45,143 bases of DNA from Gammaproteobacteria bacterium (GCA_029862885.1 JAOTWM010000002.1:1-45143); one strand, 5' to 3'. Numbered from the stretch's first letter, positions 621 through 45,143 are shown. The notes: generated by a model not told the origin, from the sequence alone. Translations and numbers: made by a program.

Positions 621-775
621 CGTTTTGCGTGTTGTCCTCTCTTATTTGGTCTTACTCCGACTTGTGCCAGGTACGCAATCAACTCGTCAGGTGTTGGCTT
701 CGGCTAGTTACATGATTTCGATCGTTTTTTAATGGTCGCTGGTTGAGACTTAATGCGAGCCGATTATCGCGATGT

Positions 776-2615: not shown

Positions 2616-2664
2616 AAAAAGCGATTGTCCACGTAACGTGGACATAAGTCAATAGTGGACAATC
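2609..2664 (-). promoter_or_regulatory. TA operon promoter with overlapping inverted-repeat operator array
   Basis: Perfect palindrome TGTCCACGT-A-ACGTGGACA (2626-2644) and a 10-bp IR GATTGTCCAC (2623-2632)/GTGGACAATC (2655-2664). Minus strand carries TTGACT-17bp-GACAAT. Confidence 0.7.
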
Positions 2665-2905
2665 ACGCTGAGGGTCCCGAGCTGTCCGCATTCCTTTAAC
2701 GCTGGTCCGGACCGAGTAATCGATCACGAAGAATGTAGAAAGCCACTCAAGCAATGTGGAAAATACTTGATAATTCTCCCTTATGGCGCGAGAAGGTCAA
2801 AATCCACCCAGTTTCACCGCGGAAGTAGACTCAAGTCGGTATCTGCAACTCACCGCTTCTGCTTTTACCCGCAGGTTGCCTCGTGCTCCCATGTGTTGAT
2901 CGGAA

Positions 2906-21258: not shown

Positions 21259-21331
21259 GATCCACGAATAGCACATATTGATATTCACCTATTATTAGGC
21301 CCGTGCTTGGCCATCGACTCAGATATAAGTC

Positions 21332-22114: not shown

Positions 22115-22235
22115 GGTGGTTTTGTTTGTAATCATTAATAATACCTCCATCATCGATTTTGCCGGATGCGACTCAATATTATTGGGTTGTGTGTGGGCCC
22201 ACATCGAGTAGATTTAGAGTGGCTACTAAACCACA

Positions 22236-23804: not shown

Positions 23805-23862
23805 GGTTTTTCCGGCACTACGTCATTGAGATCTAATCGTCTTGATATGGTAGGCGAGGATT

Positions 23863-25257: not shown

Positions 25258-25286
25258 CTCACAATCACTGATTCTAGCCTGACTTG

Positions 25287-27362: not shown

Positions 27363-27553
27363 AAATCGCGATACCAATCGGAAAATCGAAATTCGACATG
27401 CTAATTTTATCTGTACTCTCCCCCGAACTAACGATGACGTAGTCTGGGTTAGTTTGTACAATAAGAATTACATAATAGTGGCCACCGTTTCGCTTCGCGA
27501 AATCCAAAAATCGCAACGAACTATCGGCTAAATTTTGAATCAGCAGTCTAATT

Positions 27554-28471
27554 GTGACAAATATCTTCGGAATTCCAATTGTTATCGCAATCATTTTGGG
27601 GATTATCTTCCCATACACCGCTATTTCGTTAATGCCATACGGTGTTGCTTTTCTCTTTATACTGATGATGTCCGCAGGAATTACAATCGATTGGCGTAAG
27701 TTACGATATTTTACCTACCGCTTACCGGAATTGCTTATCGGACTAGTATTTTTATTTGCCATATTCCCAATAGGTCAATGGTTGATCGCTCGGTGGTTAG
27801 TTACCGACGACCAGTTTCTATATGGTTTAGTGTTTGCGTCGCTGTGTCCTGTTGCAATTGTCGCGCCGTACTTCAGTAATTTGATTGAGGCCGACGATGA
27901 ATTTGCGTTCGTCCTGATGATCTGGTCGATGATTCTTTGTCCGCTAATTGCGCCTATTATGTTGAAGATCTTACTGCAACCGTCGGTCGCTCTCAACGTG
28001 TTACCTCTTACCAAATACATGCTTCTCCTGGTGACTACGCCAATCGCATTGAGCTATGCGATAGATCGAGTATTCCCGAGGTGCAAAGTGATCTTACGAC
28101 CACTTTTGGGACTATTAAATATGGGTAGCCTAAGCGTCCTGATATTTATCCTTTTCGGCACTGCGGTGGGCCGCTTGAATCTTCACTACACCCCCATAAA
28201 TGACTTGTTTGTCTTGCTTTTTTTAATGTTTCTGCAAGATTTCGGGGTACTAGTCGTGGCCCGTCGAATATTCTCCTTCTGGCTTAGCCCTGAAATCGTC
28301 GGAGCACTTTCAATATCGCTGTCGATGCGAAACGTTGCCATAGCGGCGGGGGTGCTATTATTTTATGATCCCAAAGCGTCTTTTCCTGCGGCATTGGGCT
28401 TCATAGCCCACGCATTCTTGTTCACGTTCATTTCGATGCGCCGCAGGTCCAAGTGGTTCCGCCCCGTATAA
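27554..28471 (+). CDS. Bile acid:sodium symporter (BASS/ACR3-like) family transporter
   Basis: Multiple TM segments with LCPVAIVAP and SMRNVAIA motifs. Confidence 0.7.
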   Translation: MTNIFGIPIVIAIILGIIFPYTAISLMPYGVAFLFILMMSAGITIDWRKLRYFTYRLPELLIGLVFLFAIFPIGQWLIARWLVTDDQFLYGLVFASLCPVAIVAPYFSNLIEADDEFAFVLMIWSMILCPLIAPIMLKILLQPSVALNVLPLTKYMLLLVTTPIALSYAIDRVFPRCKVILRPLLGLLNMGSLSVLIFILFGTAVGRLNLHYTPINDLFVLLFLMFLQDFGVLVVARRIFSFWLSPEIVGALSISLSMRNVAIAAGVLLFYDPKASFPAALGFIAHAFLFTFISMRRRSKWFRPV

Positions 28472-28540
28472 GGTAATTTCGCGTTGCAGGCAGAGTGTGC
28501 GACGCTTGCGTAGGAACTTAGCTCGCCTGGCTATTTGCGG

Positions 28541-29176
28541 TTATGGCCTCCACCTTCGCATGCTCGGAGGACCATGCGACGGAGATTTTCTCTTCACATT
28601 TGGGTATGGATTGCGAGAATCCAACTCCAGAAACTCGGATAACTTCTCCGCTTTATTCGGATCCGAAAGATCGATGGCCAGTAATTGGTCCGAATAATTC
28701 ACAAAGAATGATAGCACCTCGTCGACATGCTGCCGGTGGATATTTTGCAACAGCACGCGATCCTTGGCGCTGACAACCGATAGTTCCGAGGACGCATAGT
28801 TGTTATACTGAAGATACTCGTAAGGATCGAGTCGCCTAGTTCTTCGGTTCTTTAGTTGCCAATGTCGCGCCACAGATTCCCACCATTGGTCGCTATCCCG
28901 GGTAACCAATACGAATCTGCTCTCCTTGTAGCGTCGGTGTAACTCCGTATACAAAGCAGGGAACGGTACATCGGTAAAAGCGTCATGCGATTCGATTACC
29001 GGTGCTAGGGTATCGACCACCAGCTTCTTGCTGGTCAGGCATGTGCCGCACATTTTTTCGTAATTAACGCCATTCACCGAGTGCGGCCAATGTATGGAGC
29101 GAAATCCCACACTCCGAAAAAAACGATTCAGACTTTTGGTTCCTGTTTTCTGAAACCCAATACCGAATACCTTCAT
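28541..29176 (-). CDS. Sulfotransferase family protein (P-loop type)
   Basis: MKVFGIGFQKTGTKSL, AFTDVP, FVLVTRDSDQWWES. Confidence 0.8.
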   Translation of the reverse strand: MKVFGIGFQKTGTKSLNRFFRSVGFRSIHWPHSVNGVNYEKMCGTCLTSKKLVVDTLAPVIESHDAFTDVPFPALYTELHRRYKESRFVLVTRDSDQWWESVARHWQLKNRRTRRLDPYEYLQYNNYASSELSVVSAKDRVLLQNIHRQHVDEVLSFFVNYSDQLLAIDLSDPNKAEKLSEFLELDSRNPYPNVKRKSPSHGPPSMRRWRP

Positions 29177-29341
29177 GATCTCACATCAAAAGAAGATGGT
29201 TGAAGCGGCGAGCACCGCCCAAAGACAATAACCCATTCCACATGCCGAGCAATAGCCCTTGACGGTCCAAGTCCAACTTTAGAAAATGAGCTGCAGACAT
29301 CTGCCACGTGTATTTCGATCGCGAACCCCGTCCACGAAGCA

Positions 29342-30088
29342 ATGATTTCCAAGAAATTCAATTGCCTGTTTGTCCATATACCCAAAACCGCAGGCGAAAG
29401 TATAGAGCGATATTTCATGAAGTTACAGAATCTAACCTGGAATGAACGCTCCGAATTGCTAATTAGCAGGAATCATGACGTGGACTCCGGCCCACCTAGA
29501 TTGGCCCACTTGATGGCCTCCGAGTATCTTAATTACGGTCACGTGGGTGAAGTGGAATTTCGCGATTTTTTCAAATTTGCCATCGTTCGCAATCCCTGGG
29601 AAAGATTAGTGTCGGAATTTTTCTTTAATCACTACGGCCGTTACGAGTTTAAAGTATTTATCTTTGACAGATTCCCAACCGCGATCGACGACGATTACAA
29701 GACGGGATCCGACAGATTTCGTCACATCATACCGCAGTACGATTTTCTTCACGACGAGGAAGATCGGTGTCTGGTCGATTTCATCGGCAGATTCGAGTCG
29801 TTGGGTTCGGATTTTGAAAGGGTCTGCCGACGCCTGAATTTGCCGGTAAAACCGCTAGAGAAACTAAACAGCTTCGAGCGGTTAATGGTACGTCGGCTTC
29901 ACAAATCTGGAAAGCTCAAGACCGGCCAGAAAGTCCAAGTCGAGAAACCGCATTATTCTCAATTTTATGATGACGAGAGTCGAGAGTGGGTGGCAGAGAT
30001 GTACGCAAAGGATATAAAAACCTTCAATTATCAATTCGAGCGGGGTGCCAGGGGTACACGTCCTGTCGTCCGAGTGGTGCGCAACTAA
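29342..30088 (+). CDS. Sulfotransferase family 2 protein
   Basis: FVHIPKTAGESI, VRNPWERLVSEF, HIIPQ, DFIGRFESL, YAKDIKTFNYQF. Confidence 0.87.
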   Translation: MISKKFNCLFVHIPKTAGESIERYFMKLQNLTWNERSELLISRNHDVDSGPPRLAHLMASEYLNYGHVGEVEFRDFFKFAIVRNPWERLVSEFFFNHYGRYEFKVFIFDRFPTAIDDDYKTGSDRFRHIIPQYDFLHDEEDRCLVDFIGRFESLGSDFERVCRRLNLPVKPLEKLNSFERLMVRRLHKSGKLKTGQKVQVEKPHYSQFYDDESREWVAEMYAKDIKTFNYQFERGARGTRPVVRVVRN

Positions 30089-30091
30089 CTT

Positions 30092-30676
30092 CTAATACTT
30101 ACAGTCGATCGTATCGACAAGGGGAGCTCTGGCACTACCACTGTCTAAGGATCGAAAGTGATCGATTTCGAACATTGTCGTGTAATCAGCACAATACAGG
30201 AATGCGTTAACGGCCGAGTATTTAATATCCTCCTCCGAACATGCGCCGGCGGAGAACCTTTCGTTCGCAAATCCAACAAAGTAGCGCAGGTGCCCACCAT
30301 CGACTGCCTTCTCGAAGAATTTCGGCTTAAAGCTATCGGGGCACTCAATATATTCGGTGTGCTGCCCTCGGTACCCTACTCTCTGCTTCTCAAATAGAGC
30401 GCGGAATACGGCGACTTTCTGTACGATCAGCGCATCAGCTACGGACTGATCGATTCCGGTAACCTCCGTCACATTTAATTTTTCGTTCTCGCCAAGATAC
30501 TCTAAGAACGCGATATTGTCCCCATAAGTTGTACGGGAGAATCGGTATCCCCAGAACGAATCGCCCGCCGGGAGAGCGTCGCCTCGCTTTGTGTAATAAA
30601 CCAACACCAGACCCACGGTCGCGACGAGAACGACAATCGGTAATGCTATGACCAACAGTTTGCGTCTCAGAGTCAC
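30092..30676 (-). CDS. Hypothetical membrane-anchored protein
   Basis: N-terminal TM helix followed by a soluble domain with four cysteines. Confidence 0.7.
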   Translation of the reverse strand: MTLRRKLLVIALPIVVLVATVGLVLVYYTKRGDALPAGDSFWGYRFSRTTYGDNIAFLEYLGENEKLNVTEVTGIDQSVADALIVQKVAVFRALFEKQRVGYRGQHTEYIECPDSFKPKFFEKAVDGGHLRYFVGFANERFSAGACSEEDIKYSAVNAFLYCADYTTMFEIDHFRSLDSGSARAPLVDTIDCKY

Positions 30677-30872
30677 GATGGCTATAAGTTGGGAATCCGG
30701 GAGGTTATATGGCCTCTAACGATAGTTTTAATCGAGTCCGTGGCGTTGTCGGTCAAGATGCTACCGGTCGACTCGTGATGTGGGACGAAATGCGGACAAG
30801 TAGTAACTATTCGGTGGTGTCCTTTACCGAAGGCCATACAATTCGGCTGTCATAGACTGGGCCTGTACGCAC

Positions 30873-32153
30873 TTAGTGACGAGCATATTTTATCTTATGG
30901 TTCAGCAAAGTAGCCTCTAGCCTATTGGCGATAATAGGCTCCTTTAAGTATAAGTCGATGGATTCGTGTGGGTCCGATTTTATATTGAATAATAATTTAA
31001 ATCGTCCGTACCGAACAATCAATTTCCATGGGCCGATACGGATGTATTCGTCCCAATTGTTTTTCCCAATAAGAACTTTCTCCTCGGTGTTACGGCCACT
31101 CAGTACATCAAAAAGGTGGTCGTTGGAGATAGGTGTTGCCCACGGTATTTCGAGCATCTTATATATTGCGGGGGCGAGATCCGCTAGAGCAACGGCACTC
31201 GGTACGCGAACAGTTATACTTATTTTCGGATGTAGTATAAGAATTGGAACGTGAACACACGACTGATATGCGACCCCATGCTTAAAAATCCCATTATCGC
31301 CCAATCCGGTTCCGTGGTTGGCATAGAGAACTACGATGCTGTTGTCGTTATAACGCTCCTGTAATACCTTAAATACTCGACCAAGTTGTGCGTCTGCGTA
31401 GCTTAGTTGTCGACTGTAAATATGTCGTTCTATTTGTTGCGCTCGTTCAGGCTCAAGATCTCTCTGCCTTTTCAAGAAATATGCGTATCTGTTCGTTCCA
31501 TTAGGAGCTTGATATTCATAGCGGCGGGCATTAATTGAAGATGCATACTCAGTGTCGGGTTGTATCGGATGTCGATATTGATGATTATGTAATAACGTCG
31601 GGCGAAATAAAACAAATCTTGGGTGATCGCTCGGTCGTTCGAGTTTGTCGATTAGAAGATCGACAAGGTCTTCCATCAAGATTTTTGATGACCACTGCGA
31701 GTAGTCGGCAAATCCCCTATCCAGGAAGACATGTTGGCCCGCCCGACCGCCTTGATTGATATTTATCGTGTGGTATCCGTGTTGCGAGAGAACTTGAGCC
31801 ATGGACACGGAGCTAGTGAGCGACTTCTCGATTTTCAGTTGCTTGATAAGATCGAGTTTCTTGTACCGATCGATTTCCGCAGGCATTACAGGAATCTGGT
31901 GGGGCAATGTTAAGGTCAGTACTGAAGTATTGCTTAGGAATGTCTCCCCTGCCGGGGCGGAGGCATCCTCGAATACTACTCCGTGTTCAAAGAACGCATC
32001 GATATTTGGCGTTAAATCTGCGTTGCTGATAAGTCCGGTAAAGTCTGCTCTTAGTAATTCAATATTCAAGAAGATTACATTGCAACCACGGCAAGCCAAA
32101 TCGCGCGGTGCGCCAGCGGCATCGGGGCTGCCAAAGAGCGTACTCGAATTCAT
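30873..32153 (-). CDS. Sulfatase-like hydrolase/transferase (non-canonical active site), third paralog
   Basis: CRGCNVIFLNIELLRAD, TPNID, ANHG, HVPILILHP, LADLAPAI. No signal peptide in the ORF as called. Confidence 0.8.
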   Translation of the reverse strand: MNSSTLFGSPDAAGAPRDLACRGCNVIFLNIELLRADFTGLISNADLTPNIDAFFEHGVVFEDASAPAGETFLSNTSVLTLTLPHQIPVMPAEIDRYKKLDLIKQLKIEKSLTSSVSMAQVLSQHGYHTININQGGRAGQHVFLDRGFADYSQWSSKILMEDLVDLLIDKLERPSDHPRFVLFRPTLLHNHQYRHPIQPDTEYASSINARRYEYQAPNGTNRYAYFLKRQRDLEPERAQQIERHIYSRQLSYADAQLGRVFKVLQERYNDNSIVVLYANHGTGLGDNGIFKHGVAYQSCVHVPILILHPKISITVRVPSAVALADLAPAIYKMLEIPWATPISNDHLFDVLSGRNTEEKVLIGKNNWDEYIRIGPWKLIVRYGRFKLLFNIKSDPHESIDLYLKEPIIANRLEATLLNHKIKYARH

Positions 32154-32169
32154 AATCTAATTATGAATT
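32147..32169. repeat. Perfect 10-bp inverted repeat overlapping the start codon
   Basis: AATTCATAAT-CTA-ATTATGAATT. Confidence 0.8.
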
Positions 32170-32285
32170 AGCGGCCGAGCGCATATAGCTGTGAATGTGA
32201 AAATAATGCCTTGAGTATCTCTGATCATGACTAGGGAAGTAATAACTCTGAAACACGCTCTGCAGTAGTTAGATCAAGACGACCT

Positions 32286-33047
32286 TCACCTCGACGATAG
32301 CATGGACTGGATTTTGTCAGTCCAGTAGTCGTTTCGTTCTTTATCCAATTTGGAATACTCGCAGTCATCGTCGGATAACAAATCACACGGAACAACATCG
32401 CCAGGCCCTCGCAATACCAACACAAAGCTACTGAGCATGACGGCCTCTCGAATATCATGTGTTATCAGCACGGTACGTGAATTGATCCGAGCGATGGTTT
32501 GACGGAAGTAGCGTTGAACTACATTCTTTGTATCCTGGTCCAGCGAACCAAAGGGTTCATCCATTAGCACACATAATGGGTCCACCGCGAGCGCACGCGC
32601 CAATCCGACTCGCTGCTGCATTCCACCAGACAGTGATTTTGGATAAAGCCCTTCAGTGCCTTCTAATCGCATTGTCTTCAATATCTCGCGCGCACGTTGG
32701 TTTCGCTCCCCATTTGGTAAACCTTTCGCTTTTAAGCCAAACTCAACATTCTCTAACACATTTTTCCATGGATACAAATTATGGTCTTGAAATACCACCG
32801 GGCGAGCAGCGGATGGGCCCATCACCTTATCGCCGCAAATCGATATGGCACCTGCATCTGCTGATGAAAAACCGGCGAGCAACGCTATTAATGTGGATTT
32901 ACCGACACCACTTTGACCGACAACCGCCAATACCATATGGCGGTCATCCAGCGTTAACGATAGATCGCTAAAAATCGGCATGCCGGGATACGAAAAATCG
33001 ACATTGTCGATCTGCATCCAGACTTCTGGGGAACTTCCTTCAGCCAT
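32286..33047 (-). CDS. Nitrate/sulfonate/taurine-type ABC transporter ATP-binding protein
   Basis: GQSGVGKST, VVFQDHNLYPW, LSGGMQQR, LMDEPFGSLD, ITHD. Confidence 0.9.
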   Translation of the reverse strand: MAEGSSPEVWMQIDNVDFSYPGMPIFSDLSLTLDDRHMVLAVVGQSGVGKSTLIALLAGFSSADAGAISICGDKVMGPSAARPVVFQDHNLYPWKNVLENVEFGLKAKGLPNGERNQRAREILKTMRLEGTEGLYPKSLSGGMQQRVGLARALAVDPLCVLMDEPFGSLDQDTKNVVQRYFRQTIARINSRTVLITHDIREAVMLSSFVLVLRGPGDVVPCDLLSDDDCEYSKLDKERNDYWTDKIQSMLSSR

Positions 33048-33786
33048 CGTCCCGCCAATGGCTTAGTCGTAAATCAATTCGCTGCAGGAGGAAGTTACTC
33101 ACATAACCAAGCATGCCGATTACTAGCAGGTAGGAATACAATTTTTCCATTTCGATATTCAGACTGAACAATTGAATGCCATAACCCAACCCACTTGAAG
33201 CTCCCATCATTTCTGCCGCAACAACACAAAACCAGCCGAGGCCGACCCCCAGTCGCAACCCATGGAATGCGTAGGGAAGAGCCGATGGGACGATCACGTC
33301 TGTGAGCTGCAGCAGTTTCCCACAACCGAAGCTTTCAGCAGCGAGGATATGGGATCGCTTGACCTCCATCAAACCTTGCTGAATACCCAACCATATCGGG
33401 AAAAACGCGCCCAGTGCGACTATTGCTATCGCCGGTTGAGTACCCACACCGAATGCAACGATGGCGAGGGGTGTCCAAGCGATCGGTGGAATAGGCCGGA
33501 ACAATTCAATGCCGCCCGATAAGTAGTCGGGAAACGACCTCCAGTATACCGCGACTAAGCCTAGTACCGCCGCGAGTAAAGAGCTAATCGCGACACCGGC
33601 CAACACCCGAAAAAGGCTCGCAAAAGCATCCTTTAGTAATATTCTCGAACGCAGTAACTCCAAAAAGCTCCAGAGCACATCATTTAATGGAGGAGTGAGC
33701 ACATTATTTTTTGATGTTGATAAATGCCACGCTAGCAAAATCACGCACACTCCGACGCTTGCTCGCGCTTGCTGGGGTAGCTTCAT
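33040..33786 (-). CDS. Nitrate/sulfonate/taurine-type ABC transporter permease
   Basis: RPIPPIAWTPL, AFFPI, VVAAEMMGASSGLG (SsuC/TauC pattern). Confidence 0.9.
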   Translation of the reverse strand: MKLPQQARASVGVCVILLAWHLSTSKNNVLTPPLNDVLWSFLELLRSRILLKDAFASLFRVLAGVAISSLLAAVLGLVAVYWRSFPDYLSGGIELFRPIPPIAWTPLAIVAFGVGTQPAIAIVALGAFFPIWLGIQQGLMEVKRSHILAAESFGCGKLLQLTDVIVPSALPYAFHGLRLGVGLGWFCVVAAEMMGASSGLGYGIQLFSLNIEMEKLYSYLLVIGMLGYVSNFLLQRIDLRLSHWRDDG

Positions 33787-34998: not shown

Positions 34999-35916
34999 TT
35001 GAAACGCTCGATGAAGAGTACGACGCATAGAACAAAGACCGAACTGGTCGAGAAAACGCTAGCCAAAGAGATGTTTTTTATCGTCGGTGTAGCCAAATCC
35101 GGCACCACGTGGTTGCAACACTTACTGGATTCTCATCCAGAAATCGTGTGTCGGGGCGAGTCCCACTTTATCGATATATTTCATGCCTCATTAGTGAAGG
35201 CGTTCGAAGAGTACAACAACGCGGTGGTCAAACAGGGCGGTGTTGTCGCCCATTTAAAGGAGTACGGCGGTCATGTTGATACGCTTCGTTATGACTTGAA
35301 CGACTCATTTTACTTACTCGTCCAGGCAATTGGGCTTATGTTTGGTAAGTGGAATAACGATCCCTCGATTAGACTAATTGGGGAAAAAACGCCCGACAAC
35401 ATTGCGTGCCTCAGTTTATTGTCGAGTATATTTCCCTCGGCTAAATTCATACACATTATTAGGGACGGCAGGGATAGCGCTGTGTCGGGGTGGTTTTTTA
35501 ACCAGAGTGGGCTCGCTAAGAACAAACAGATCGTCCAAACGTTCGACGAGTATGTGCGGGGATTTGCGAAGGCATGGAGTAGTCAGATTAACCAAGGATG
35601 TGCGATCGGCGCTGGTCTCGATGATCGTTACATGGAAGTACGGTACGAGAACCTAGCCTTTACCCCAAATGACGAAGCGACGAAGCTACTGCGATATTTG
35701 GATGTTGACGATTCCGAGCAGTGTATTAACAACTGCCTGAAAGCATCTTCTTTTCAATCACTTACTGGTGGCCGACGTCCCGGAGAAGAAGACCCAGAAG
35801 CCTTCTTCCGGAAAGGAGTGGTAGGTGACTGGAGAAATAAATTTAGCGATGACCTCAGAGACGATTTTTACAACATAGCCGGAGACACACTGACCCGTTT
35901 CGGATATGAGGGATAG
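34999..35916 (+). CDS. PAPS-dependent sulfotransferase
   Basis: GVAKSGTTWL, EKTP, IIRDGRDSAVS, VRYENL, FFRKGVVGDW. Confidence 0.9.
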   Translation: MKRSMKSTTHRTKTELVEKTLAKEMFFIVGVAKSGTTWLQHLLDSHPEIVCRGESHFIDIFHASLVKAFEEYNNAVVKQGGVVAHLKEYGGHVDTLRYDLNDSFYLLVQAIGLMFGKWNNDPSIRLIGEKTPDNIACLSLLSSIFPSAKFIHIIRDGRDSAVSGWFFNQSGLAKNKQIVQTFDEYVRGFAKAWSSQINQGCAIGAGLDDRYMEVRYENLAFTPNDEATKLLRYLDVDDSEQCINNCLKASSFQSLTGGRRPGEEDPEAFFRKGVVGDWRNKFSDDLRDDFYNIAGDTLTRFGYEG

Positions 35917-35960: not shown

Positions 35961-36878
35961 ATGGCGACTATTAGCGACAAATTAGAATTGGCTGGGCGTA
36001 ATATTAAGCTGCTCGATAAGAAGCGGCTGTTCTTTGTTTCGGGTATATCCAAATCGGGAACTACCTGGCTGGAGCGGGTTTTGGATAGTCACCCGGAAAT
36101 CATTTGCAAGGGTGAGGCTCATTTCGGCAGTCTCCTAGAGCCAGCGATCCGTAATACCGTAGCGGAATATAACGCCCGTATACCTAGGCAGGGAAATTGG
36201 TCACGCCATAGAAAAGAGAACACGACCGATAATAGTTCATCCTCATATATCTACGACACCAGTGATTTGGATTTCCTGCTCGCCACTGCCATCAAACTAA
36301 TGCTTGTGAAATGGGCCAATGTCGATACCGTAAAATGCGTAGGAGAAAAGACACCAAATAACTTTACTTATTATCCGCTCCTCGCCCGATTATTTCCGGA
36401 CTCGAAGTATATTTATATGATTCGAGATGTCCGCGACGTCATAGTTTCCGCTTGGTTCTATAATTTAGCCGTTGGCTCCGATCAAATGCTACGGCAATTC
36501 GTCAGCATCGAACGATACGCCGTACACGTTGCAAAAGTGTGGGCAGCCGAGGTATCGAGCGCGATGACATTGGGGCGGCCGCTCGGTAACAATTATTGTG
36601 AAATTCAATATGAGAACCTTTGGCAGAACCCGGAACATGAAGTAGGTCGACTCCTCGAGTTTCTCGATGTGTCCACGTCGGATTCAGTTATCAATGAATG
36701 TTTGGGGCTTACGGATTTTTCAAAGTTGTCGGGAGGCCGGCCACGCGGCACCGAAAACAGAAGTTCGTTCTATCGAAAGGGGGTGGTCGGGGACTGGAAG
36801 AATCATCTTGATGACACGTCGATTGCTGAAGTAAAGAACCACTGCGGTAGCTTGATGAGTGAATTGGGATATGACTAG
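35961..36878 (+). CDS. PAPS-dependent sulfotransferase (tandem paralog)
   Basis: GISKSGTTWL, EKTP, IRDVRDVIVS, IQYENL, FYRKGVVGDWKN. Confidence 0.9.
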   Translation: MATISDKLELAGRNIKLLDKKRLFFVSGISKSGTTWLERVLDSHPEIICKGEAHFGSLLEPAIRNTVAEYNARIPRQGNWSRHRKENTTDNSSSSYIYDTSDLDFLLATAIKLMLVKWANVDTVKCVGEKTPNNFTYYPLLARLFPDSKYIYMIRDVRDVIVSAWFYNLAVGSDQMLRQFVSIERYAVHVAKVWAAEVSSAMTLGRPLGNNYCEIQYENLWQNPEHEVGRLLEFLDVSTSDSVINECLGLTDFSKLSGGRPRGTENRSSFYRKGVVGDWKNHLDDTSIAEVKNHCGSLMSELGYD

Positions 36879-36925: not shown

Positions 36926-37729
36926 CTATGGTATTTCGCCGCCATAACTGACACCGGATAAAATAGTTTGAAGTTCGGTCGCTGAAATATACTGCCATGC
37001 TTTGTGAACCCCAACAGGCGAAGGATGATAGATTCGCTCTACAGCAAATCGACGTGCCAATTCAACAGAAGGTAGGTGATACTTGTCGGGCATGAGGTGC
37101 ATATTGATCGAGTAAAACGCATCTTCAGATCCAATAATCCATGGATTTGCGTTGCTGGCTTTACATACCTCAATCATCGCCATTTTGCGTCTCACTGACA
37201 GTCCACCGCTCCCGAAAAGACACCATGGGGAAATCACACTATCCGGCCATGGTGCGCCGACGTAGTCATACTCCAGGAATGCTTCTACTTCATTGGAACA
37301 TAGCATAGAGTCGGAATTGAAAAATAACTGAACCTCGCCCTTGATGGATTTCCAGAAGCCTACTTTTCGTTTTACTGTATCTGCAAAGTCTCTTCCCGAT
37401 TCTTGCAACCCCACCGGTAAACTGTTTATGTGTACGTACTGCCAGCCACTCAGGACTTTCATTATCCAATCCCTCATATCCCGAGAAACGAATACCTGTA
37501 GACCCCATTCTTCTCCAAGGAAAAACATGATGTTACGGATCGCGAATTCCGTAAATGGAGATCGCTTCGTTTCGATAAAGACCGCAAATTTGTTGGAATT
37601 GATTGGGATGCCCGTGAAATCGACCGCGCGTAAGGCCGGTAGCATTTCATTGATGTGGTGGCGACGAACACCTAATGCTTCACTGACTTCTCTTGGATCC
37701 CGCTCCGACATTTGGTCAGTGAAATCCAT
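36926..37729 (-). CDS. DUF5672 family protein (predicted glycosyltransferase-like)
   Basis: YDYVGAPW, GSGGLSVR, EDAFYS, FAVE, PVGVHKAW. Confidence 0.78.
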   Translation of the reverse strand: MDFTDQMSERDPREVSEALGVRRHHINEMLPALRAVDFTGIPINSNKFAVFIETKRSPFTEFAIRNIMFFLGEEWGLQVFVSRDMRDWIMKVLSGWQYVHINSLPVGLQESGRDFADTVKRKVGFWKSIKGEVQLFFNSDSMLCSNEVEAFLEYDYVGAPWPDSVISPWCLFGSGGLSVRRKMAMIEVCKASNANPWIIGSEDAFYSINMHLMPDKYHLPSVELARRFAVERIYHPSPVGVHKAWQYISATELQTILSGVSYGGEIP

Positions 37730-37735
37730 TAGATG

Positions 37736-38524
37736 CTAGTACTCTATCGTAGACAGTAATTGCCGCACTTGCTCGGTGGGTAAATACTTCCACAGTTTGT
37801 GCAAGCCCAGGGGGTTTGGGTCATAGACACCCTCGACTGCAAATCGCTTCGCCTGCTCATAGGTGCCCAGTTTAAAAGTTCCCGGTTCTTTCGCGTTACA
37901 TAGAGACATATTGACGCAAAAGAAAATATCCTCCGGCTCAAATAATGAATGATGCGGATTGGCGACAGCAGCGATTCGCAACATTGCAGATCTACGTCGC
38001 AGCGATAGGCCACCATTGCCGACTCGACAGGCCGGGGAAACTGCAAATTGTTTGCCCCACGGAGCGCCTATATAATCAAGGTGCATAAACTCATCAATGC
38101 CCGTGCGGCGAAATATACTGTCCGGCTCCATCCAGAGAATGTGCCCGGTCCGGATTTGCTCCCAGAATGTGTATTGTTTTTTTAAGGAATTGTAGTCACG
38201 CGTACTCAAATCATTGGTATCCAGTTTTTCGATGCCGACATAACCCCAAGATCGAGTTAGTTCCTTAATGTACGAAAAGTTATCCGGCCCAGTGAAAATC
38301 TCTAATCCCCACTCCGGTCCAAGAAAGTACATGGCGTTGCGTAACACATATTCGAGATGGGGATGCTTTCTTGGCTCAACTAACACGACGCTGCGCTGAG
38401 AGTCTTTTGGAATCGACGGCCGAGGCAGCTGCCGGACTATCGGATACGTGCGTTCTATAAACTCATTCCAAATCTGATAGTTCGTTTCTTCCCGCAGCCT
38501 GGATCGACTAATCGCCTCACTCAT
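37736..38524 (-). CDS. DUF5672 family protein (predicted glycosyltransferase-like)
   Basis: VEPR.HP, DYIGAPW, VGNGGLSLR, EDIFF, FAVE, PLGLHKLW. ATG 38524 overlaps the upstream stop. Confidence 0.8.
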   Translation of the reverse strand: MSEAISRSRLREETNYQIWNEFIERTYPIVRQLPRPSIPKDSQRSVVLVEPRKHPHLEYVLRNAMYFLGPEWGLEIFTGPDNFSYIKELTRSWGYVGIEKLDTNDLSTRDYNSLKKQYTFWEQIRTGHILWMEPDSIFRRTGIDEFMHLDYIGAPWGKQFAVSPACRVGNGGLSLRRRSAMLRIAAVANPHHSLFEPEDIFFCVNMSLCNAKEPGTFKLGTYEQAKRFAVEGVYDPNPLGLHKLWKYLPTEQVRQLLSTIEY

Positions 38525-40095
38525 GGCGCCCTCGCTTTTGGGCAACCGGAGATTTCAGCTTTCAGCGCGTTGGCGATTTGACCTACAACGCTGTCCCAGT
38601 CGCCGTGTCTCGGCTGTCGAAATAATCGCATGCTTGGATACCAAGGGCTATCGGTACGGTTCTGCAAATATCGCCAGCAATGCGCAAACCACAACATTGT
38701 CCATACTGGCTTACCTAACGCCCCGGCCAAATGTGCGGTCGCGGTATCGACTGTTATTACCAAATCCAGCGCCTCAATAAGAGCTGCAGTATCGCCGAAG
38801 TCGCGAAGTTCTTCGGTGAAGTCAATGATCTTAAGTTGTTTCGGGCCGCCTTGCAGCTGCTCGGCTGCAGGCCCAACTTGTATACTGTAAAATGCTGAAC
38901 CATCGACAGCCGCTAACGGCGCCAACGCTGACAGCGGGCACGACCGATATTTGTTGTCCTTCTGTCCCGGATTACCGGCCCACACCAGACCCACCGTAAT
39001 ACGCTCTTTTTCTAATTGCCCTCGCCAAGCGTCCACCTTCGAGCTATCTGCTCTCAAGTAGGGGGTCACACGCGGGATCGACTCTAATGTTGTGCCGAAC
39101 ACCCTTGGTAGGCTCAGCAAAGGTATCTGCACGTCGTAATGGATTCTCTCTATAGCCTCCGGTGTCTTGCACTTATCGACCAATCGATGGACTGCCGTGT
39201 TTCTCTCGAACAATGAATGCAATGACGCATCGCACATAAACACAATTTGACCGCCACGTTCCGCGACCATGGGCAGGTATCGTGAAAAGTGAATTACATC
39301 GCCGATGCCCTGTTCGCCATACACCAACAGGGTTTTACCGCAAAAATCGCTTCCGTCCCAGCGTGCTCGGCCCGAGCAACGGAATAATTCGAATGACGCA
39401 TCGGATTGGCGAAATTCGTAATCGTCCCAACCCTCGGCAAGTCGGCCCAATTTCAAGAGGGCCGAACCTCTGCCGATATGAGCATCGGCATAATCCGGAT
39501 TTCGCTTTAGCGCCTCTCCATAAGCGTCGATCGCTTCCTCTAGCCTTCCTGTATATTGCAGGCAGTTTGCCAACTGGTAGTGCGCCTGAGTCCAGTCGTC
39601 GTCGAGCTCGATAGCGTGACGAAATGCCACAACAGCATCTTCGAACCGATCTTGAATCCAACACGCATTGCCCAGGTTGAAATACGCCTGTACAAATTCA
39701 GTATCGAGACTCGCCGCCAGTTGAAATTCCGACCACGCATCGGCGACTCGACCTTGATTCCAATAGGCATTACCGAGATCGTTGTGATACACCGCAAGAT
39801 CCGGCCGTATTGCCACCGCACGCTCAAGATACTCTAGGACTTTTTGTCGATTCTCCTGCTTTCTACCGCCTAACAACGCTAGGCCGAGCAAGTGATTTGC
39901 ATCCGGATTCTTATCGTCGAGCTGCAACACTTCTTCATACAAGGCTATCGCTTTTGTCAAACGGCCGGCCCGATGATGATTAACTCCCTGGCGGAGGCGG
40001 TTCGCGATACTGTCGTTTTTTGGTGCTGTGCCTATATTTAGATTCGGCACACCGTTAAGAGGTTCGTCCGCATTAGAATCCATCGGATTCGACAT
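38521..40095 (-). CDS. TPR-containing glycosyltransferase (GT9-like C-terminal domain)
   Basis: N-terminal TPRs, EQGIGDVIHFSRY, GLVWAGNP, DTAALIEALDLVITVDTATAHLAGALG, SPWYPSMRLFRQ. Confidence 0.88.
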   Translation of the reverse strand: MSNPMDSNADEPLNGVPNLNIGTAPKNDSIANRLRQGVNHHRAGRLTKAIALYEEVLQLDDKNPDANHLLGLALLGGRKQENRQKVLEYLERAVAIRPDLAVYHNDLGNAYWNQGRVADAWSEFQLAASLDTEFVQAYFNLGNACWIQDRFEDAVVAFRHAIELDDDWTQAHYQLANCLQYTGRLEEAIDAYGEALKRNPDYADAHIGRGSALLKLGRLAEGWDDYEFRQSDASFELFRCSGRARWDGSDFCGKTLLVYGEQGIGDVIHFSRYLPMVAERGGQIVFMCDASLHSLFERNTAVHRLVDKCKTPEAIERIHYDVQIPLLSLPRVFGTTLESIPRVTPYLRADSSKVDAWRGQLEKERITVGLVWAGNPGQKDNKYRSCPLSALAPLAAVDGSAFYSIQVGPAAEQLQGGPKQLKIIDFTEELRDFGDTAALIEALDLVITVDTATAHLAGALGKPVWTMLWFAHCWRYLQNRTDSPWYPSMRLFRQPRHGDWDSVVGQIANALKAEISGCPKARAP

Positions 40096-40136
40096 TCCTC
40101 GTTAGCAATCAATAGAATTCGGATTTCGTAAATATG

Positions 40137-42149
40137 CTAACGACCCAAGTGTTCTTCCAAGGCCTTGCATACTTGTGCGATTACGCTATCCCAATCACCG
40201 ATTCGCGGCTGTCGAAACAAACGCATACTCGGGTACCACGGGCTGTCGTCCCGTTCTCGTAAGTATCTCCAACAATGCGCGAACCATAATATGGTCCAAA
40301 CCGGCCGCCTCAGTGCTCCAGCCAAATGTGCCGTCACTGTATCCACGGTTATTGTTAGGTCCAATGCACTCATCAGTGCGGCGGTATCGGAAAGATCATT
40401 CAAGTCTCCCGTAAAGTCTACGATTTTCAGACCCTCTGGCGGAAGCAGCAACTGCTCCGCTCCGGCACCCTTCTGAAGACTGTAATAAGTAACACCTGCT
40501 ATTCTTCCCAGCGGTGCCATGGCAGATAACGGGCATGACCTATGTACATTTTCTTGTTGATCGGGATTTCCGGACCACACCAAGCCGACGTTTACCTGCT
40601 CGCGGTCAATACGATTCTGCCAATTCACGATATTCGAATCATCGGCGCGCAGATATGGCACTTCAGTCGGAATTGTAGCCAATGTCGTATTAAATATTCG
40701 CGGCAGACTCAATAACGATACGTGATAGTCGAAATCGACTCGGAGAGGCTCGCTGCGATCGACAAATTCGTCGATTTCAGGCACCGTCCGCAGCAATCGC
40801 ATTAACGCCGGCGCACATGCCAAAACGATCCGCCCGCCAAGTTGCTTCACCATTGGCGCGTACCGGATAAAATGAATAACGTCTCCCATCCCTTGTTCGC
40901 CCAGTATCAGCAATGTTTTGCCGTGAAATGCCGCTCCCGACCATTCAGGGCGGGCCAAATCCTGCGGGCCAATGTTTAGCCGGCCGTGCACCTCGAATCG
41001 CCATTCATAATGCCGCCAGCCCTTCTCGAGACGACCGGCTTTGAGCAACACGATGGCTTTGCCCAGATGTGACATTGCATGGTCGGGTTGCAACGCGAGC
41101 GACCGCTCAAAACAACTGATCGCGTTATCCAAATCACCTATGCGGCGATACGTAGTAGCTAGATTCATCCATGCCTGTATCATCTGCGGATGCAAACGAA
41201 TAGCGGTTCTGTATCCATCGATTGCTTCGTCATATCTATGCAGCATATATAAAATGCTAGCCATATTTACCCATGATGCCGCCCAGTCTGGATCGATTGC
41301 GATAGCCCTCTCAAACAGAGGCAAAGCTTGTTCATGGTCGCCTTGCTGGTGAAGCAAAAATCCAAGATTGTATAGGGGCCACAGAGACCGCGCCTCCAGC
41401 TCGAGCGAGCGCCGAAATGCCGCAATTGCCTCTGCCGTTTCTCCCTGCTGGTGATATATCGACCCGAGATTATTATGCAATTTCGCGTCGTTCGGCGAGA
41501 GCGCAAGGGCATTGTGAATTGCGATGAGCGCCGACTCCAATTCTCCAAGGGACTGCAGGGCGTTCGCGAGATTCGCGTGAAAATCGAACCGCGCCGGCTC
41601 TAATTCAAGCGCTATCTTAAATTGCTGTATCGCCTCGTGATAGCGCTGGCTACCAAGATGGAGCAATCCTATGTCGTTATAGGCATTGACATAGCCCGGA
41701 TCAAGATCAAGTACCCGTTGGTATTCGGATGCCGCCTCTTCGTATCGATGTAGATCGCGGAAGGTGTTACCCAAGTTATAATGGGCTTCTACATAGTCGT
41801 CTTTAACCGAGACTACGCGCTGAAAAACATCATTAGCTTCGGATATCTGACCAATTTGTGAGTAGGCCGCCCCAAGGCTGTTCAGAAATATCGGTTGATC
41901 AGGATAGGCCTTAAGTGCTTGTTGAATAAGTTCGATGGCCTGATCACTATCGCGGTTCTGTCGCAGCAGTGCCACTGCCAGCAGGTGACAGGCATCGGGA
42001 TGGTCATCTTGAATCAATCGGGCATTTCTAAAGCACTGCTCCGCGTCTCCGGGACGATTGACTTCCAACCACTTTAAACCATCTCTAATTAGAGAGGATA
42101 CATTGGATATTGTCTGGTTTTTCCCGGAGTCGATGGATTCCGTGCTCAT
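40137..42149 (-). CDS. TPR-containing glycosyltransferase (GT9-like C-terminal domain)
   Basis: About 10 TPRs, EQGMGDVIHFIRY, GLVWSGNP, LDLTITVDTVTAHLAGAL, SPWYPSMRLFRQ. Confidence 0.88.
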   Translation of the reverse strand: MSTESIDSGKNQTISNVSSLIRDGLKWLEVNRPGDAEQCFRNARLIQDDHPDACHLLAVALLRQNRDSDQAIELIQQALKAYPDQPIFLNSLGAAYSQIGQISEANDVFQRVVSVKDDYVEAHYNLGNTFRDLHRYEEAASEYQRVLDLDPGYVNAYNDIGLLHLGSQRYHEAIQQFKIALELEPARFDFHANLANALQSLGELESALIAIHNALALSPNDAKLHNNLGSIYHQQGETAEAIAAFRRSLELEARSLWPLYNLGFLLHQQGDHEQALPLFERAIAIDPDWAASWVNMASILYMLHRYDEAIDGYRTAIRLHPQMIQAWMNLATTYRRIGDLDNAISCFERSLALQPDHAMSHLGKAIVLLKAGRLEKGWRHYEWRFEVHGRLNIGPQDLARPEWSGAAFHGKTLLILGEQGMGDVIHFIRYAPMVKQLGGRIVLACAPALMRLLRTVPEIDEFVDRSEPLRVDFDYHVSLLSLPRIFNTTLATIPTEVPYLRADDSNIVNWQNRIDREQVNVGLVWSGNPDQQENVHRSCPLSAMAPLGRIAGVTYYSLQKGAGAEQLLLPPEGLKIVDFTGDLNDLSDTAALMSALDLTITVDTVTAHLAGALRRPVWTILWFAHCWRYLRERDDSPWYPSMRLFRQPRIGDWDSVIAQVCKALEEHLGR

Positions 42150-42588
42150 AAAGATAAACTACAAGAAACCAGCCGAAATGAAAAGTCACTACTATTGACG
42201 GTGAGTTTGATCGTTAGTTGAGAAATGGGATCGCCGCGGTAGCAACGGCGATCGGTTTTGCTAGCAGTTGGTGGCTGGTTGTGCACGCATGACGCCGTAC
42301 GTGCTGATTCGAATACTTGAAGATTGCAAGCGGTACTATACGAAGATCCGCGTTACTCTATCCACTTGCAAATACGAAAATGAGAGTGTGCCAATTTTGG
42401 AACTACGATAGCCGCAATCGCACACCAAAACTCACCCGTCCCGGGGTGGACAATGTGCTTGGCTACGATCTAACTAAGCATTGTGAATTTACGCGCGATT
42501 GCATCAGGCCTGTGTTGCAAGCGCGAGTATTAGAGAGACACGTTGGCAGGACTACCAACGCCTATGTAGTTGCGTACAATTGGGACTA

Positions 42589-42611
42589 GTGAGCCTCTAC
42601 GAGAGGCTCAC
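42589..42611 (-). terminator. Perfect 10-bp hairpin after the Cys-rich gene
   Basis: GTGAGCCTCT-ACG-AGAGGCTCAC, 14 bp downstream of the stop at 42626. Confidence 0.6.
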
Positions 42612-42625
42612 GATTATCCGGTCAA

Positions 42626-43171
42626 CTATGCTACGGTGCCGACCCCGGAACATATACAAACACCACCCCAATTGAACCTTAACGTCACGCTATCGCCCGA
42701 CACCACGCTGTGGCTTCCCGCCGCAACTTGAACCGAACAAGAAACCAGACACTGGCCTACGGTACCCGTACAGTCACCAGTGCCAAAGCCACTGCCCTGA
42801 TACGTTCCACCGTCCGGATCTGTCCCGACGATAAGGCCGTCACAACCCAGTATTGCGCAACTGAGCGATACCGACGGATTGGATCGGCAACCGGGCGGAA
42901 TATCCGCTTCTCCAACTACCACCAAGTCACCCCCTCCCAACACCACCGCGGCAGTGACAACGGCCGACATACCGGAGGTACACGAACCAAGCGGCGCACA
43001 CGTGGTTTGTGCGTGAGCAGGCAACACCATGGCATCGACAACGGGCGTAGCCCATTTTTTCGGAATTACTCCCGCGACAGCACCTGTCGCGGCAAGTGTT
43101 TTTAGTGCTTTACGGCGGGAGGAACTTTCTTCTATTGTCCTCGTGTCTCGGTCATCCGTCTTCTTAGTCAT
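42626..43171 (-). CDS. Cys-rich exported protein with a twin-arginine-like WxxPVVxxxxLPAHAQ leader
   Basis: GAGG RBS before ATG 43171. Leader SRRKALK-hydrophobic-WATPVVDAMVLPAHAQ, then a Gly/Ser/Thr/Val-rich mature region with 10 Cys. Confidence 0.8.
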   Translation of the reverse strand: MTKKTDDRDTRTIEESSSRRKALKTLAATGAVAGVIPKKWATPVVDAMVLPAHAQTTCAPLGSCTSGMSAVVTAAVVLGGGDLVVVGEADIPPGCRSNPSVSLSCAILGCDGLIVGTDPDGGTYQGSGFGTGDCTGTVGQCLVSCSVQVAAGSHSVVSGDSVTLRFNWGGVCICSGVGTVA

Positions 43172-43468
43172 ATTCGACCTCACGATAGCGCATTCAGGTG
43201 ATTGTGATGCGAGTCCAACCGTTTGAAGGTTAACGCATTTCTTGACATATGTATATATTTCGCGCAATTTGCCAAAATTATGGCCGATATGCCTACATGA
43301 GATATAAGTTATTGAAAATAATTGTTTATTTAGAGTGGCTCGCCGCTGTCTACAAAGTATGAGACGGCCACTAAGACCGTTTGCATCGATGCATAGGTGC
43401 GCTCTTTACATCGCTACTGATCGGTGCGCGCACCCATCGCATCGACTTCTGGCACCTTCTCGATACGC

Positions 43469-44602
43469 ATGAACACACTATCGGTGATTGGTATTGGGCG
43501 TATCGGCCTGTGTTTTGCTCTGTTCCTCGAACGTGCGGGTTATAACGTAATCGGCTGCGACCGCGACCGCCGTCATGTTGACTCTATAAACAACCGAACC
43601 CATCGATCAACGGAACCGCGTGTGATTGATTTACTAGCCCAATCGACAAACTTTCGAGCCACTTCGAGCCTCACTGAGGCGGCCGAGGCGAGTCATTTTC
43701 TTTTTGTATGCGTTCGAACCGAATCGGAACCGGATGGAAAATACTGTCATTCTCAAATCGAATCGATGCTTGGCGAATTGGAAACACTGGGGCGCCACAA
43801 GCATACTAAGCGCTTGGTTATTTGCTGCAATATTAACCCGGGCTATAGCGACGCTGTCGCATTGAGGCTGCAGCCTCTAAATTACAGCGTAACTTACAAT
43901 CCGGAATGGGTACGACAGGGATCTATTCTCGATAATTTCACCAACCCCAATACTGTCGTGATTGGCGAGCCTGATGTATCCACAGGCGATGACTTAAGCG
44001 AAATTTATCGGCGTGCCTGCAATAATACACCACGGATAATTAGGACGACTCGATTGACCGCGGAGGTTATCAAGATTGCCCTTAATTGCTCGCTGGCAGC
44101 CAAGATCGCTTTGGCGAACATGATCGGGGATCTCGCAATTTGCAAGGATGTTGACCCCCACCAGGTACTTGATGCCATTGGTTCGGACCCACGCATAGGG
44201 GCACAGTTTTTTGCTTACGGGTTTGGGTACGGCGGTCCGTGCCTACCTCGAGACACTCGGGCATTTCGATATTGCGCCCGATCATGTGGTGCTGATGCAG
44301 CGATAATAGAAGCCGTCGAATCTGCGAATCGCGAACATTTAGACTTTCAGGTAGAACGATTTTGCAGCACCCACAGCATAGACGATATCGTATTAATCGA
44401 TGAAGTGTCCTATAAGCCGGGCGTTGATATCTTGGACGATTCACAGCAACTCCTGTTTGCCGTCAAGATTGCGCAACGAGGGTATAAAGTGAAGATACGA
44501 AGCACGAAACAATTAGTAGATAAGATCAGCCGATTATACGGCGATATGTTCGACTTCGACATCACCGATGCCTCTCCAACTATTGCGTCGGACGGCGCCT
44601 AG
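43469..44602 (+). CDS. UDP-glucose/GDP-mannose dehydrogenase family protein
   Basis: Rossmann GIGRIG, YNPEW, AEVIK...N, DPRIG, catalytic GYGGPCLPRD. Short C-terminal domain. Confidence 0.88.
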   Translation: MNTLSVIGIGRIGLCFALFLERAGYNVIGCDRDRRHVDSINNRTHRSTEPRVIDLLAQSTNFRATSSLTEAAEASHFLFVCVRTESEPDGKYCHSQIESMLGELETLGRHKHTKRLVICCNINPGYSDAVALRLQPLNYSVTYNPEWVRQGSILDNFTNPNTVVIGEPDVSTGDDLSEIYRRACNNTPRIIRTTRLTAEVIKIALNCSLAAKIALANMIGDLAICKDVDPHQVLDAIGSDPRIGAQFFAYGFGYGGPCLPRDTRAFRYCARSCGADAAIIEAVESANREHLDFQVERFCSTHSIDDIVLIDEVSYKPGVDILDDSQQLLFAVKIAQRGYKVKIRSTKQLVDKISRLYGDMFDFDITDASPTIASDGA

Positions 44603-44661: not shown

Positions 44662-45143
44662 ATGGTATCTTGTCTTCGAGTCGTTTCGTTCGGATTAATA
44701 GCGTCGCTTGCTTTAACGAACTGTAGCCCGAGTCGGCCTGCTCCACCGAATGTGATAATTTTTTTTGCCGATGACGCCGGATACTCCGATTTCGGATTTC
44801 AGGGCAGCGGCACCCATGTGACGCGGTGGATAGATTCCCTTGCGGAGCAAGGGACACGATTTTCGCAAGCTTACGCGTCTTCGTCAGTTTGTAGCCCCTC
44901 ACGAGCGGGACTGTTAACGGGCAGGTATCAGAATCGCTTTGGCGTTGAATTCAACCTTCCTACGTTTTCTAGCCAGCAATATTCACTTGAAAAACAAGGG
45001 TTGCCCTTATCGGAGATTACGCTAGCCGACCGGGCGAAACAGCACGGCTACCGCACGGCGATGATAGGCAAATGGCACCTTGGCGAGGCACCACAGTTTT
45101 TGCCCGATCAACGTGGATTCGACGAATACTTCGGACTGTTGGG
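44662..45143 (+). CDS. Arylsulfatase-type sulfatase, partial (runs off the window; absent from the ORF track)
   Basis: Manual translation: MVSCLRVVSFGLIASLALTNC...PNVIIFFADDAGYSD...VCSPSRAGLLTGRYQNRFG...GYRTAMIGKWHLG...RGFDEYFG. Confidence 0.9.
   Translation, partial: MVSCLRVVSFGLIASLALTNCSPSRPAPPNVIIFFADDAGYSDFGFQGSGTHVTRWIDSLAEQGTRFSQAYASSSVCSPSRAGLLTGRYQNRFGVEFNLPTFSSQQYSLEKQGLPLSEITLADRAKQHGYRTAMIGKWHLGEAPQFLPDQRGFDEYFGLL

Follow-up and report, generated by a model that had tools for sequence, protein, structure and literature searches.

A small leader-bearing gene and its enzyme cassette

The window analysed here is a stretch of 45,143 nucleotides from Gammaproteobacteria bacterium (GCA_029862885.1, JAOTWM010000002.1:1-45143), and our subject is a small gene for a leader-bearing, cysteine-rich protein that lies in it beside a cassette of putative glycosyltransferase and sulfotransferase genes. 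An original prediction, made from the sequence alone, held that the leader both directs twin-arginine translocation (Tat) and serves as a docking tag, and that the protein is glycosylated and sulfated before export. The small gene occupies 42626..43171 on the minus strand, where an open reading frame (ORF) with an ATG start encodes 181 residues; the leader comprises residues 1-54 (43010-43171) and the mature part the remaining 127 (42629-43009). The gene has a ribosome-binding site of its own, as predicted, with GAGG read from the sequence at 43178..43181, 6 nt before the ATG; an alternative reading from a TTG start gives 213 residues. A GC-rich hairpin of 10 bp follows the stop codon on the same strand at 42589..42611 and is strong (-23.9 kcal/mol, z -4.39), with none of 200 shuffled sequences folding equally well. 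The proposed terminator stands as far as the hairpin itself is concerned, but a U-tract is absent and a scan for consensus terminators did not list it.

The leader also has the features ascribed to it, namely an arginine pair, a hydrophobic stretch and a cleavage-like site between AHA and Q. SRRKALK is followed by a weakly hydrophobic stretch and by WATPVVDAMVLPAHA before QTT; in order, its letters run SRRKALK, TLAATGAVAGVI and PKKWATPVVDAMVLPAHA, again up to QTT. The protein scores 23.9 bits against the NCBIfam Tat-signal model TIGR01409 (cut-off 16.7), and the genome encodes TatC (PF00902, 245 bits, contig G000:C267). Within the leader, WATPVV fits the letter pattern YxxPxL of lasso-peptide leaders, and this WxxP stretch may resemble the lasso-type motif. 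The mature part is rich in Cys, Ser, Thr and Gly and free of Lys, in agreement with the earlier description (10 Cys, 0 Lys, 2 Arg, S+T+G 39%). In an AlphaFold2 (AF2) model built on a five-sequence alignment it is all-beta and the leader has low confidence (mean predicted local distance difference test score, pLDDT, 56; strands 70-79). The Atlas model of the protein resembles Ig-like beta-sandwich domains at template modelling (TM) scores of 0.55-0.61, a likeness that is uninformative on function.

The four genes downstream, all on the minus strand, encode two proteins that combine tetratricopeptide repeat (TPR) families with a GT9-like transferase (TPR-GTs; 670 aa at 40137..42149, hereafter the first TPR-GT, and 524 aa at 38521..40095, the latter also matching PF01075) and two DUF5672 proteins, a (37736..38545) and b (36926..37729), which score 89.3 and 86.8 bits for PF18922 (cut-off 24.4). 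The four genes converge on two plus-strand genes for sulfotransferases of the 3'-phosphoadenosine-5'-phosphosulfate (PAPS) type, sulfotransferase 2 at 35961..36878 and sulfotransferase 1 at 34999..35916, which match Sulfotransfer_3/1 (Sulfotransfer_3 scores of 110.7 and 107.3 bits). Layout and gene content were found as originally claimed. The four minus-strand enzyme genes are tightly packed, with gaps of at most 41 nt or overlaps, and a gap of 476 bp (42150-42625) lies between them and the small gene.

The two TPR-GTs share a C-terminal domain of about 286 aa in which they are 58% identical to each other. Only the 524-aa protein exceeds the cut-off for PF01075, Glyco_transf_9 (26.4 bits against 22, over a 32-residue stretch, residues 434-465); the 670-aa protein falls below it. 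A profile of 11 such C-terminal domains reached heptosyltransferase I in the PDB only at E 0.23, which is not significant, and PDB sequence searches with the transferase domain and with DUF5672 protein a gave no match. Homologues of the domain number at least 6007 proteins at E <= 1e-20; the matches listed span several phyla and, where named, carry only 'tetratricopeptide repeat protein' or similar generic names.

DUF5672 protein a was modelled from 45 sequences with a pLDDT of 96.3 (AF2). Its top Foldseek matches were glycogenin (GT8), RmlT, GlyE and SpsA at E of about 1e-7 and TM of about 0.5, and its matches comprise GT8, GT2 and GT6 enzymes; judged by this model, DUF5672 is a GT-A glycosyltransferase fold. 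D142 is invariant in both alignments and E140 only among 14 close orthologues, and the E-P-D motif that they form may be the equivalent of the metal-binding DxD. The translations of the two sulfotransferases contain KSGTTW and RDxRD stretches, which we take to be the PAPS-binding loops. Among solved structures, sulfotransferase 2 is closest to protein-tyrosine sulfotransferases, with full-length alignments at E 5e-12 to 1e-9. Inspection of the translations by eye found no N-terminal hydrophobic segment in the enzymes, which look cytoplasmic on this basis.

Recurrence of the module

In four genomes the genes for the small protein and the enzymes stay together as a module. It recurs in three genomes besides that of the window at about 36-52% protein identity, each time drawing on the same set: a leader protein, a hairpin, two TPR/GT9-like transferases, one or two DUF5672 proteins and two sulfotransferases. 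Locus L026 (genome G243) has the same gene order, with identities of 47% for the small protein, 48% and 47% for the TPR-GTs, 52% and 37% for the DUF5672 orthologues (the lower value for protein b against L026:15012-15869), and 48% and 47% for the convergent sulfotransferases 1 and 2. L024 holds the small protein (46%) and the first TPR-GT (48%), after which the contig ends. In L106 (genome G009, from the same taxonomic order as the window's genome) a 172-aa leader protein stands with two TPR-GTs, one DUF5672 protein and two sulfotransferases at 36-45% identity (orthologues: first TPR-GT 38%, sulfotransferase 1 36-45%, sulfotransferase 2 30-42%), and the flanks of the cassette are otherwise different. 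The other genes of L106 are GT2-type, PhyH, Stf0, Sulfotransfer_2, kinase-like and a stand-alone PqqD (L106:15472-15762). A strong hairpin follows the small gene in all four cassettes and is accompanied by a U-tract in three, that is, in all but the window. In L024 and L026 the small gene is separated from the first TPR-GT by 113-114 bp; the distance is 240 bp in L106 and 476 bp in the window.

In the genomes counted, components of the cassette are rare. In the window's genome the only two TPR-GT and two DUF5672 ORFs are those of the cassette, beside one of the four leader genes. Genes like that for DUF5672 protein a were found in 3 of the 243 genomes searched in the order and in 2 of the 61 relatives of G243. 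This patchy distribution, combined with constant content, argues for one functional unit, and chance adjacency of the cassette genes was rejected on the rarity counts. DUF5672 in general is not tied to the module, since in a metagenome scan 76 of 80 kept loci hold DUF5672 alone among the query families searched; one other has a sulfotransferase, two have a sugar dehydrogenase, and only L123 shows the succession GT-GT-DUF5672. Homologues of the small protein at 40-49% identity were found in L026, L024, P0002 and P0003, and a metagenome scan with the mature domain gave 371 pattern matches, none of them confirmed.

Divergent from the small gene lies a gene for a nucleotide-sugar dehydrogenase (43424..44602, plus strand; TIGR03026, 217 bits, cut-off 189.8). 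It has no counterpart in L026, L024 or L106, and we regard it as a possible sugar supplier outside the conserved module.

The leader family and its neighbours

The leader is a family-wide element and is not private to the window's small protein. Four proteins of the window's genome share it, with unrelated mature parts and different neighbourhoods. At E <= 1e-3 a leader profile of 45 positions matches 4248 cluster representatives, and at E <= 1e-10 it still matches 1392. Among 150 listed proteins, 64-345 aa long, the match begins within the first 21 residues in 149. For the 138 of these that could be parsed, the median pairwise leader identity is 81%, and BLASTP at E <= 1e-3 detects similarity between mature parts only in 239 of the 9453 pairs. 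An even number of Cys is present in 91% of the 138, the median Lys content is 0.7%, and QTS directly follows AHA in 110; the RR pair in this set follows from the parsing rule and the seeds. Of 15 other family members scanned, 3 exceed the TIGR01409 cut-off. The leader has no named family in Pfam, NCBIfam has generic Tat-signal models only, and a literature search found neither the leader motif nor anything joining Arenicella with twin-arginine. Matches occur in 23 of 41 related genomes, with up to 55 per genome and often in tandem, and the 77 leader loci of a species-representative collection belong mostly to Arenicellales, Arenicella or Gammaproteobacteria metagenome-assembled genomes.

A second AHA motif is present in 27 of the 138 leader proteins, 28-47 residues after the first in 22 of them, and its context, ...L[IV]xxAHAG, is conserved; composition alone predicts 0.9 such motifs. 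It is seen among P0005-P0154 and in the own-genome copies L001:9735-10310, L002:4259-4768 and L003:2913-3476, and hints at a pro-region or a second processing site.

In longer members of the family (P0015, P0087 and L110:5326-6105) the C-terminus is a Peptidase_S74 (endosialidase chaperone) domain, a hint of trimeric fibre-like cargo. These trimerising ends fit the view that the family consists of Tat-exported fibre or pilus subunits, whose conserved N-terminal stretch would serve assembly, for example by strand donation, and not docking, any glycosylation then merely coating the fibre. The small beta-sandwich of the modelled mature part and the tandem arrays of leader genes point the same way, as do the Tat-dependent strand-donation pili of haloarchaea (PMC12337348). 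We nevertheless consider this view very improbable, as the cargo domains are mostly unrelated to each other and no usher, chaperone or sortase-like partner is found among the recurring neighbours. AxA is the canonical cleavage site, and one comes after the conserved stretch, so that the stretch should be cut off.

To describe the neighbourhoods, the 77 loci were searched with local profiles, counting 290 genes within two genes of a leader gene as near and 661 others as far. No neighbour family dominates, the commonest cluster being found in 7 of the 77 loci. The genes that recur close to leader genes mostly encode protein-modifying enzymes: TPR-GTs, PqqD-GT2-GT25 and TPR-GT2-GT25 fusions, PqqD with GT2, a pyruvyl-transferase-PqqD fusion, TTL-type ATP-grasp ligases and sulfotransferases. 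Near and far matches were 6 and 0 for PqqD, 5 and 0 for TTL and 4 and 2 for TPR-GT, against 2 and 2 for sulfotransferases and 0 and 2 for DUF5672; because the profile seeds came from the same loci, detection is biased here, although position is not. Leader genes are over-represented beside glycosyltransferases bearing a TPR or PqqD module; this neighbourhood comparison is the one suggested with the original prediction.

As an independent check, the PqqD association was followed in the 41 related genomes, 25 of which contain Pfam PqqD matches (107 in all). Leader and PqqD occur together in 21 genomes; 2 have the leader without PqqD, 4 have PqqD without the leader, and 14 have neither. For 18 of the 107 PqqD matches, at least one of the 150 listed leader matches is found within 10 kb, where a rough uniform expectation is about 5.7, and for 14 within 3.5 kb (about 2.0 expected); these distances were counted by hand using 150 of 208 leader matches, in related genomes that are not independent. 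The window itself has no PF05402 (PqqD) match anywhere on its contig, and the local PqqD profile found none in the window or in its closest syntenic loci, L026 and L024, which bears out the earlier remark that no PqqD or other RiPP recognition element (RRE) gene is visible there (RiPP, ribosomally synthesised and post-translationally modified peptide). Homologues of the TPR-GTs lie directly beside a leader gene in 5 of 16 loci (12 genomes). The leader proteins that stand beside glycosyltransferases in L110, L062 and L082 have long Thr/Pro-rich linkers of the O-glycosylated kind.

TTL-type ATP-grasp genes adjoin leader genes in five loci (L034, L036, L060, L066 and L067), in L036 together with the pyruvyl-transferase-PqqD fusion. 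PqqD domains are unusually numerous in the order (G009, G021 and G037), with up to 11 matches per genome, and many of them sit inside large ORFs of 600-1300 aa.

Proposed modification before export and its alternatives

We propose that the cassette enzymes glycosylate, and perhaps sulfate, the small protein in the cytoplasm before it is exported by Tat, and from the sequences we give this about even chances. The small gene would yield a precursor with a Tat-type leader of about 54 residues and a disulfide-capable beta-sandwich domain of 127 residues; its strong ribosome-binding site is its own, and the hairpin probably limits read-through into the enzyme genes. In the cytoplasm, the two TPR/GT9-like transferases would grip the precursor with their TPR arms and attach its first sugars, the two DUF5672 enzymes would extend the glycan through their predicted GT-A fold, and the two PAPS-type sulfotransferases would sulfate the glycan or, less likely, the protein. 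The folded, decorated protein would then be exported by Tat and cut by signal peptidase between AHA and Q.

As the only conserved non-enzyme member of the module, the small protein is taken as the acceptor. PAPS and nucleotide sugars are cytoplasmic, and the enzymes, which lack N-terminal hydrophobic segments, look cytoplasmic too; modification before export is therefore the logical order, and TatC is present. We infer the identity of the acceptor, the order of the steps and the dependence on Tat, and the WxxPVVxxVxLP part of the leader may be the site at which the enzymes dock, for which the enrichment of PqqD and TPR modules beside leader genes gives indirect support. The original claim of glycosylation and sulfation before export is partly supported, by a module held together in four genomes, by enzymes that look cytoplasmic and by the excess of leader genes beside glycosyltransferases with TPR or PqqD modules, and all of this evidence is genomic.

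Several observations weigh against this proposal. Synteny between the window and L026 reaches into the flanks, where a sulfatase and an SsuA-type ABC transporter are shared, and therefore this pair alone does not isolate the module. The mature part of the G009 leader protein bears only a weak similarity to that of the window's protein (by hhalign, the last 45 columns align with a probability of 8.7% and an E of 0.004). The window's small protein lacks a Thr/Pro-rich linker, and the GT9 assignment of the TPR-GTs is weak. The sulfotransferases are closest to tyrosine sulfotransferases, and TPST1/2 are their best solved relatives, yet no Tyr is conserved in the alignment of the small-protein family; for this reason the acceptor is probably not tyrosine, and tyrosine sulfation of the small protein was set aside. 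Most leader genes have no adjoining modifying enzyme.

Other observations on the same side bear on a different acceptor. TPR-GT homologues have no detectable leader gene in 11 of the 16 loci, and in L109, L114 and L119 they are paired with sulfotransferases alone, so the enzyme pair can work with no leader protein nearby. The hairpin and the 476-bp gap separate the small gene from the enzyme operon, and the window is a broader sulfatase/sulfotransferase island, with four sulfatases, four sulfotransferases and the SsuA-type transporter. The acceptor for the sulfated glycan might then be a lipid, an oligosaccharide or some other protein, for instance a large adhesin, and the small protein only a conserved neighbour, perhaps with a binding or structural role in an island for sulfated-glycan metabolism; the spread of the transferase domain through at least 6007 proteins, in several phyla among the matches listed, would suit such a role. 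We think this somewhat unlikely. In G009 the leader protein accompanies the enzymes despite different flanks, TPR arms are well suited to acceptors that are proteins, and a leader gene is adjacent in 5 of the 16 loci though leader genes are a very small share of all genes. A polysaccharide cluster was also considered, but family scans of the genes between 16.8 and 45.1 kb matched no polysaccharide polymerase, flippase or exporter.

A separate question is what the leader does beyond export. In its widest form the docking idea would make the leader of about 45 residues, with the consensus SRRKLLKSIAAGSGAIVAGKSLPESWS[RK]PVVDSVMLPAHA up to the cut before QTS, a dual-purpose tag, its front half a Tat signal and its WxxPVVxSVxLP half a docking strand for the PqqD or TPR modules of cytoplasmic glycosyltransferases, ligases and sulfotransferases. 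We regard this as unlikely. The leader behaves as a generic tag: it is found on thousands of cargo proteins that are unrelated to each other and mostly lack modifying neighbours, which counts against any docking role and favours a purely lineage-specific signal for Tat export and processing. Under that explanation, which is compatible with the small protein being the substrate, the enzymes would recognise the mature domain. Conservation that runs through the processing site (AHA, then QTS), TIGR01409 matches over cut-off in the window's protein and in other members, and the lack of a PqqD gene in the window all agree with an export-only leader, and we hold it to be a serious possibility that stops short of even chances. 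The leader's median identity of 81% is far above the conservation that Tat targeting is known to need, which tells against it. So does the enrichment beside leader genes of PqqD domains, which are known leader-binding modules (PMC7470986, PMC12710340).

Modification of the small protein in the cytoplasm before Tat export would belong to an already known kind, cytoplasmic glycosylation of a protein destined for export, to which we assign it from the genes alone. The TibC/AAH heptosyltransferases are GT9-like, are encoded beside beta-rich TibA/AIDA-I and glycosylate them in the cytoplasm before export. Unlike the window's enzymes, TibC/AAH are not known to have a TPR arm, and they serve Sec and autotransporter export, and the window's likeness to GT9 is weak. 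For the serine-rich-repeat adhesins of the accessory Sec system, cytoplasmic glycosyltransferases that include GT-A (GT8) enzymes build the glycan stepwise, and the substrates have an unusually long conserved signal peptide. GlyE of this pathway is among the fold matches of DUF5672 protein a, but the system is Gram-positive, uses the SecA2/SecY2 route and huge repeat substrates, and is not known to involve sulfation.

The closest architecture is that of FlmG, the flagellin O-glycosyltransferase of Caulobacter, which binds its protein substrate through an N-terminal TPR domain and ends in a GT-B transferase domain of some 290 aa (PMC7591256). It shares with the TPR-GTs the combination of TPR and C-terminal transferase and would share with our proposal the cytoplasmic action on a protein exported later. 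The likeness is one of architecture; the substrate of FlmG is flagellin, which leaves by the flagellar apparatus, and a twin-arginine leader, DUF5672 or sulfotransferase does not figure in that system. RiPP pathways offer the other parallel, and uncharacterised fusions of RREs with glycosyltransferases were noted there by RRE-Finder (PMC7470986, PMC12710340). Common to both are a hyperconserved leader with a variable core and, in relatives of the window's genome, PqqD with glycosyltransferases beside leader genes; here, unlike in RiPPs, the 'core' is a folded domain of 100-200 residues, the leader is Tat-like with an AxA site, and the window has no PqqD. The combination in the window, a Tat-type leader and folded cargo of 100-200 residues with DUF5672 and sulfotransferases, differs from all systems compared. 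A literature search for cytoplasmic glycosylation before Tat export listed no bacterial example, and the only paper listed for DUF5672 deals with an unrelated topic.

If true, the proposal describes a bacterial route for glycosylating, and possibly also sulfating, folded secreted proteins in the cytoplasm ahead of their export by Tat. DUF5672 would gain a first functional context, and so would the large, generically named TPR/GT9-like family. The proposal would also explain why a leader of about 81% identity is found on thousands of unrelated cargos, and would tie leader recognition of the RiPP type to protein secretion. Were the leader in addition a dual tag, a RiPP-like logic would apply to whole folded proteins, with modification first and Tat export after, and the variable cargo proteins subject to it would number in the thousands across Arenicellales and related marine Gammaproteobacteria.

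The sulfur-ester island around the cassette extends over 20257-33786 and 44662-45141, and its genes encode the four sulfatases, two further sulfotransferases (Sulfotransfer_4 and Sulfotransfer_2), a kinase-like protein, a phosphodiesterase and the SsuA-type ABC transporter. The window's assembly, G000, comprises 5.5 Mb in 727 contigs, and a genome of the same genus 2.7 Mb. The best synteny partner, L026 in genome G243, is not among the matches to DUF5672 protein a in the 243 genomes of the window's order. It is possible that the window's contig is mis-binned or that the island was horizontally transferred.

Elsewhere in the window's genome, a 4-kb contig (L203, G000:C268) carries at 723-3060 a trio of NTP_transf_5, PqqD and HPr-kinase-like genes, which we take to resemble the tailoring set of lasso-type clusters; no precursor gene is visible on this short contig. 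Another leader gene of this genome is flanked by genes for a JmjC-type oxygenase and a PMT_2 (GT-C) glycosyltransferase (L003:35-2798). Finally, in 6 of the 77 loci (L032, L042, L051, L083, L085 and L089) a small leader protein comes directly after a giant DUF7933 repeat protein (up to 2222 aa), and a similar pair occurs in the window's genome at L002:4259-9055. DsbH-like thioredoxin genes lie upstream in three of these loci, and in L042 and L085 the mature part of the leader protein has 59-61 aa and 6 Cys.

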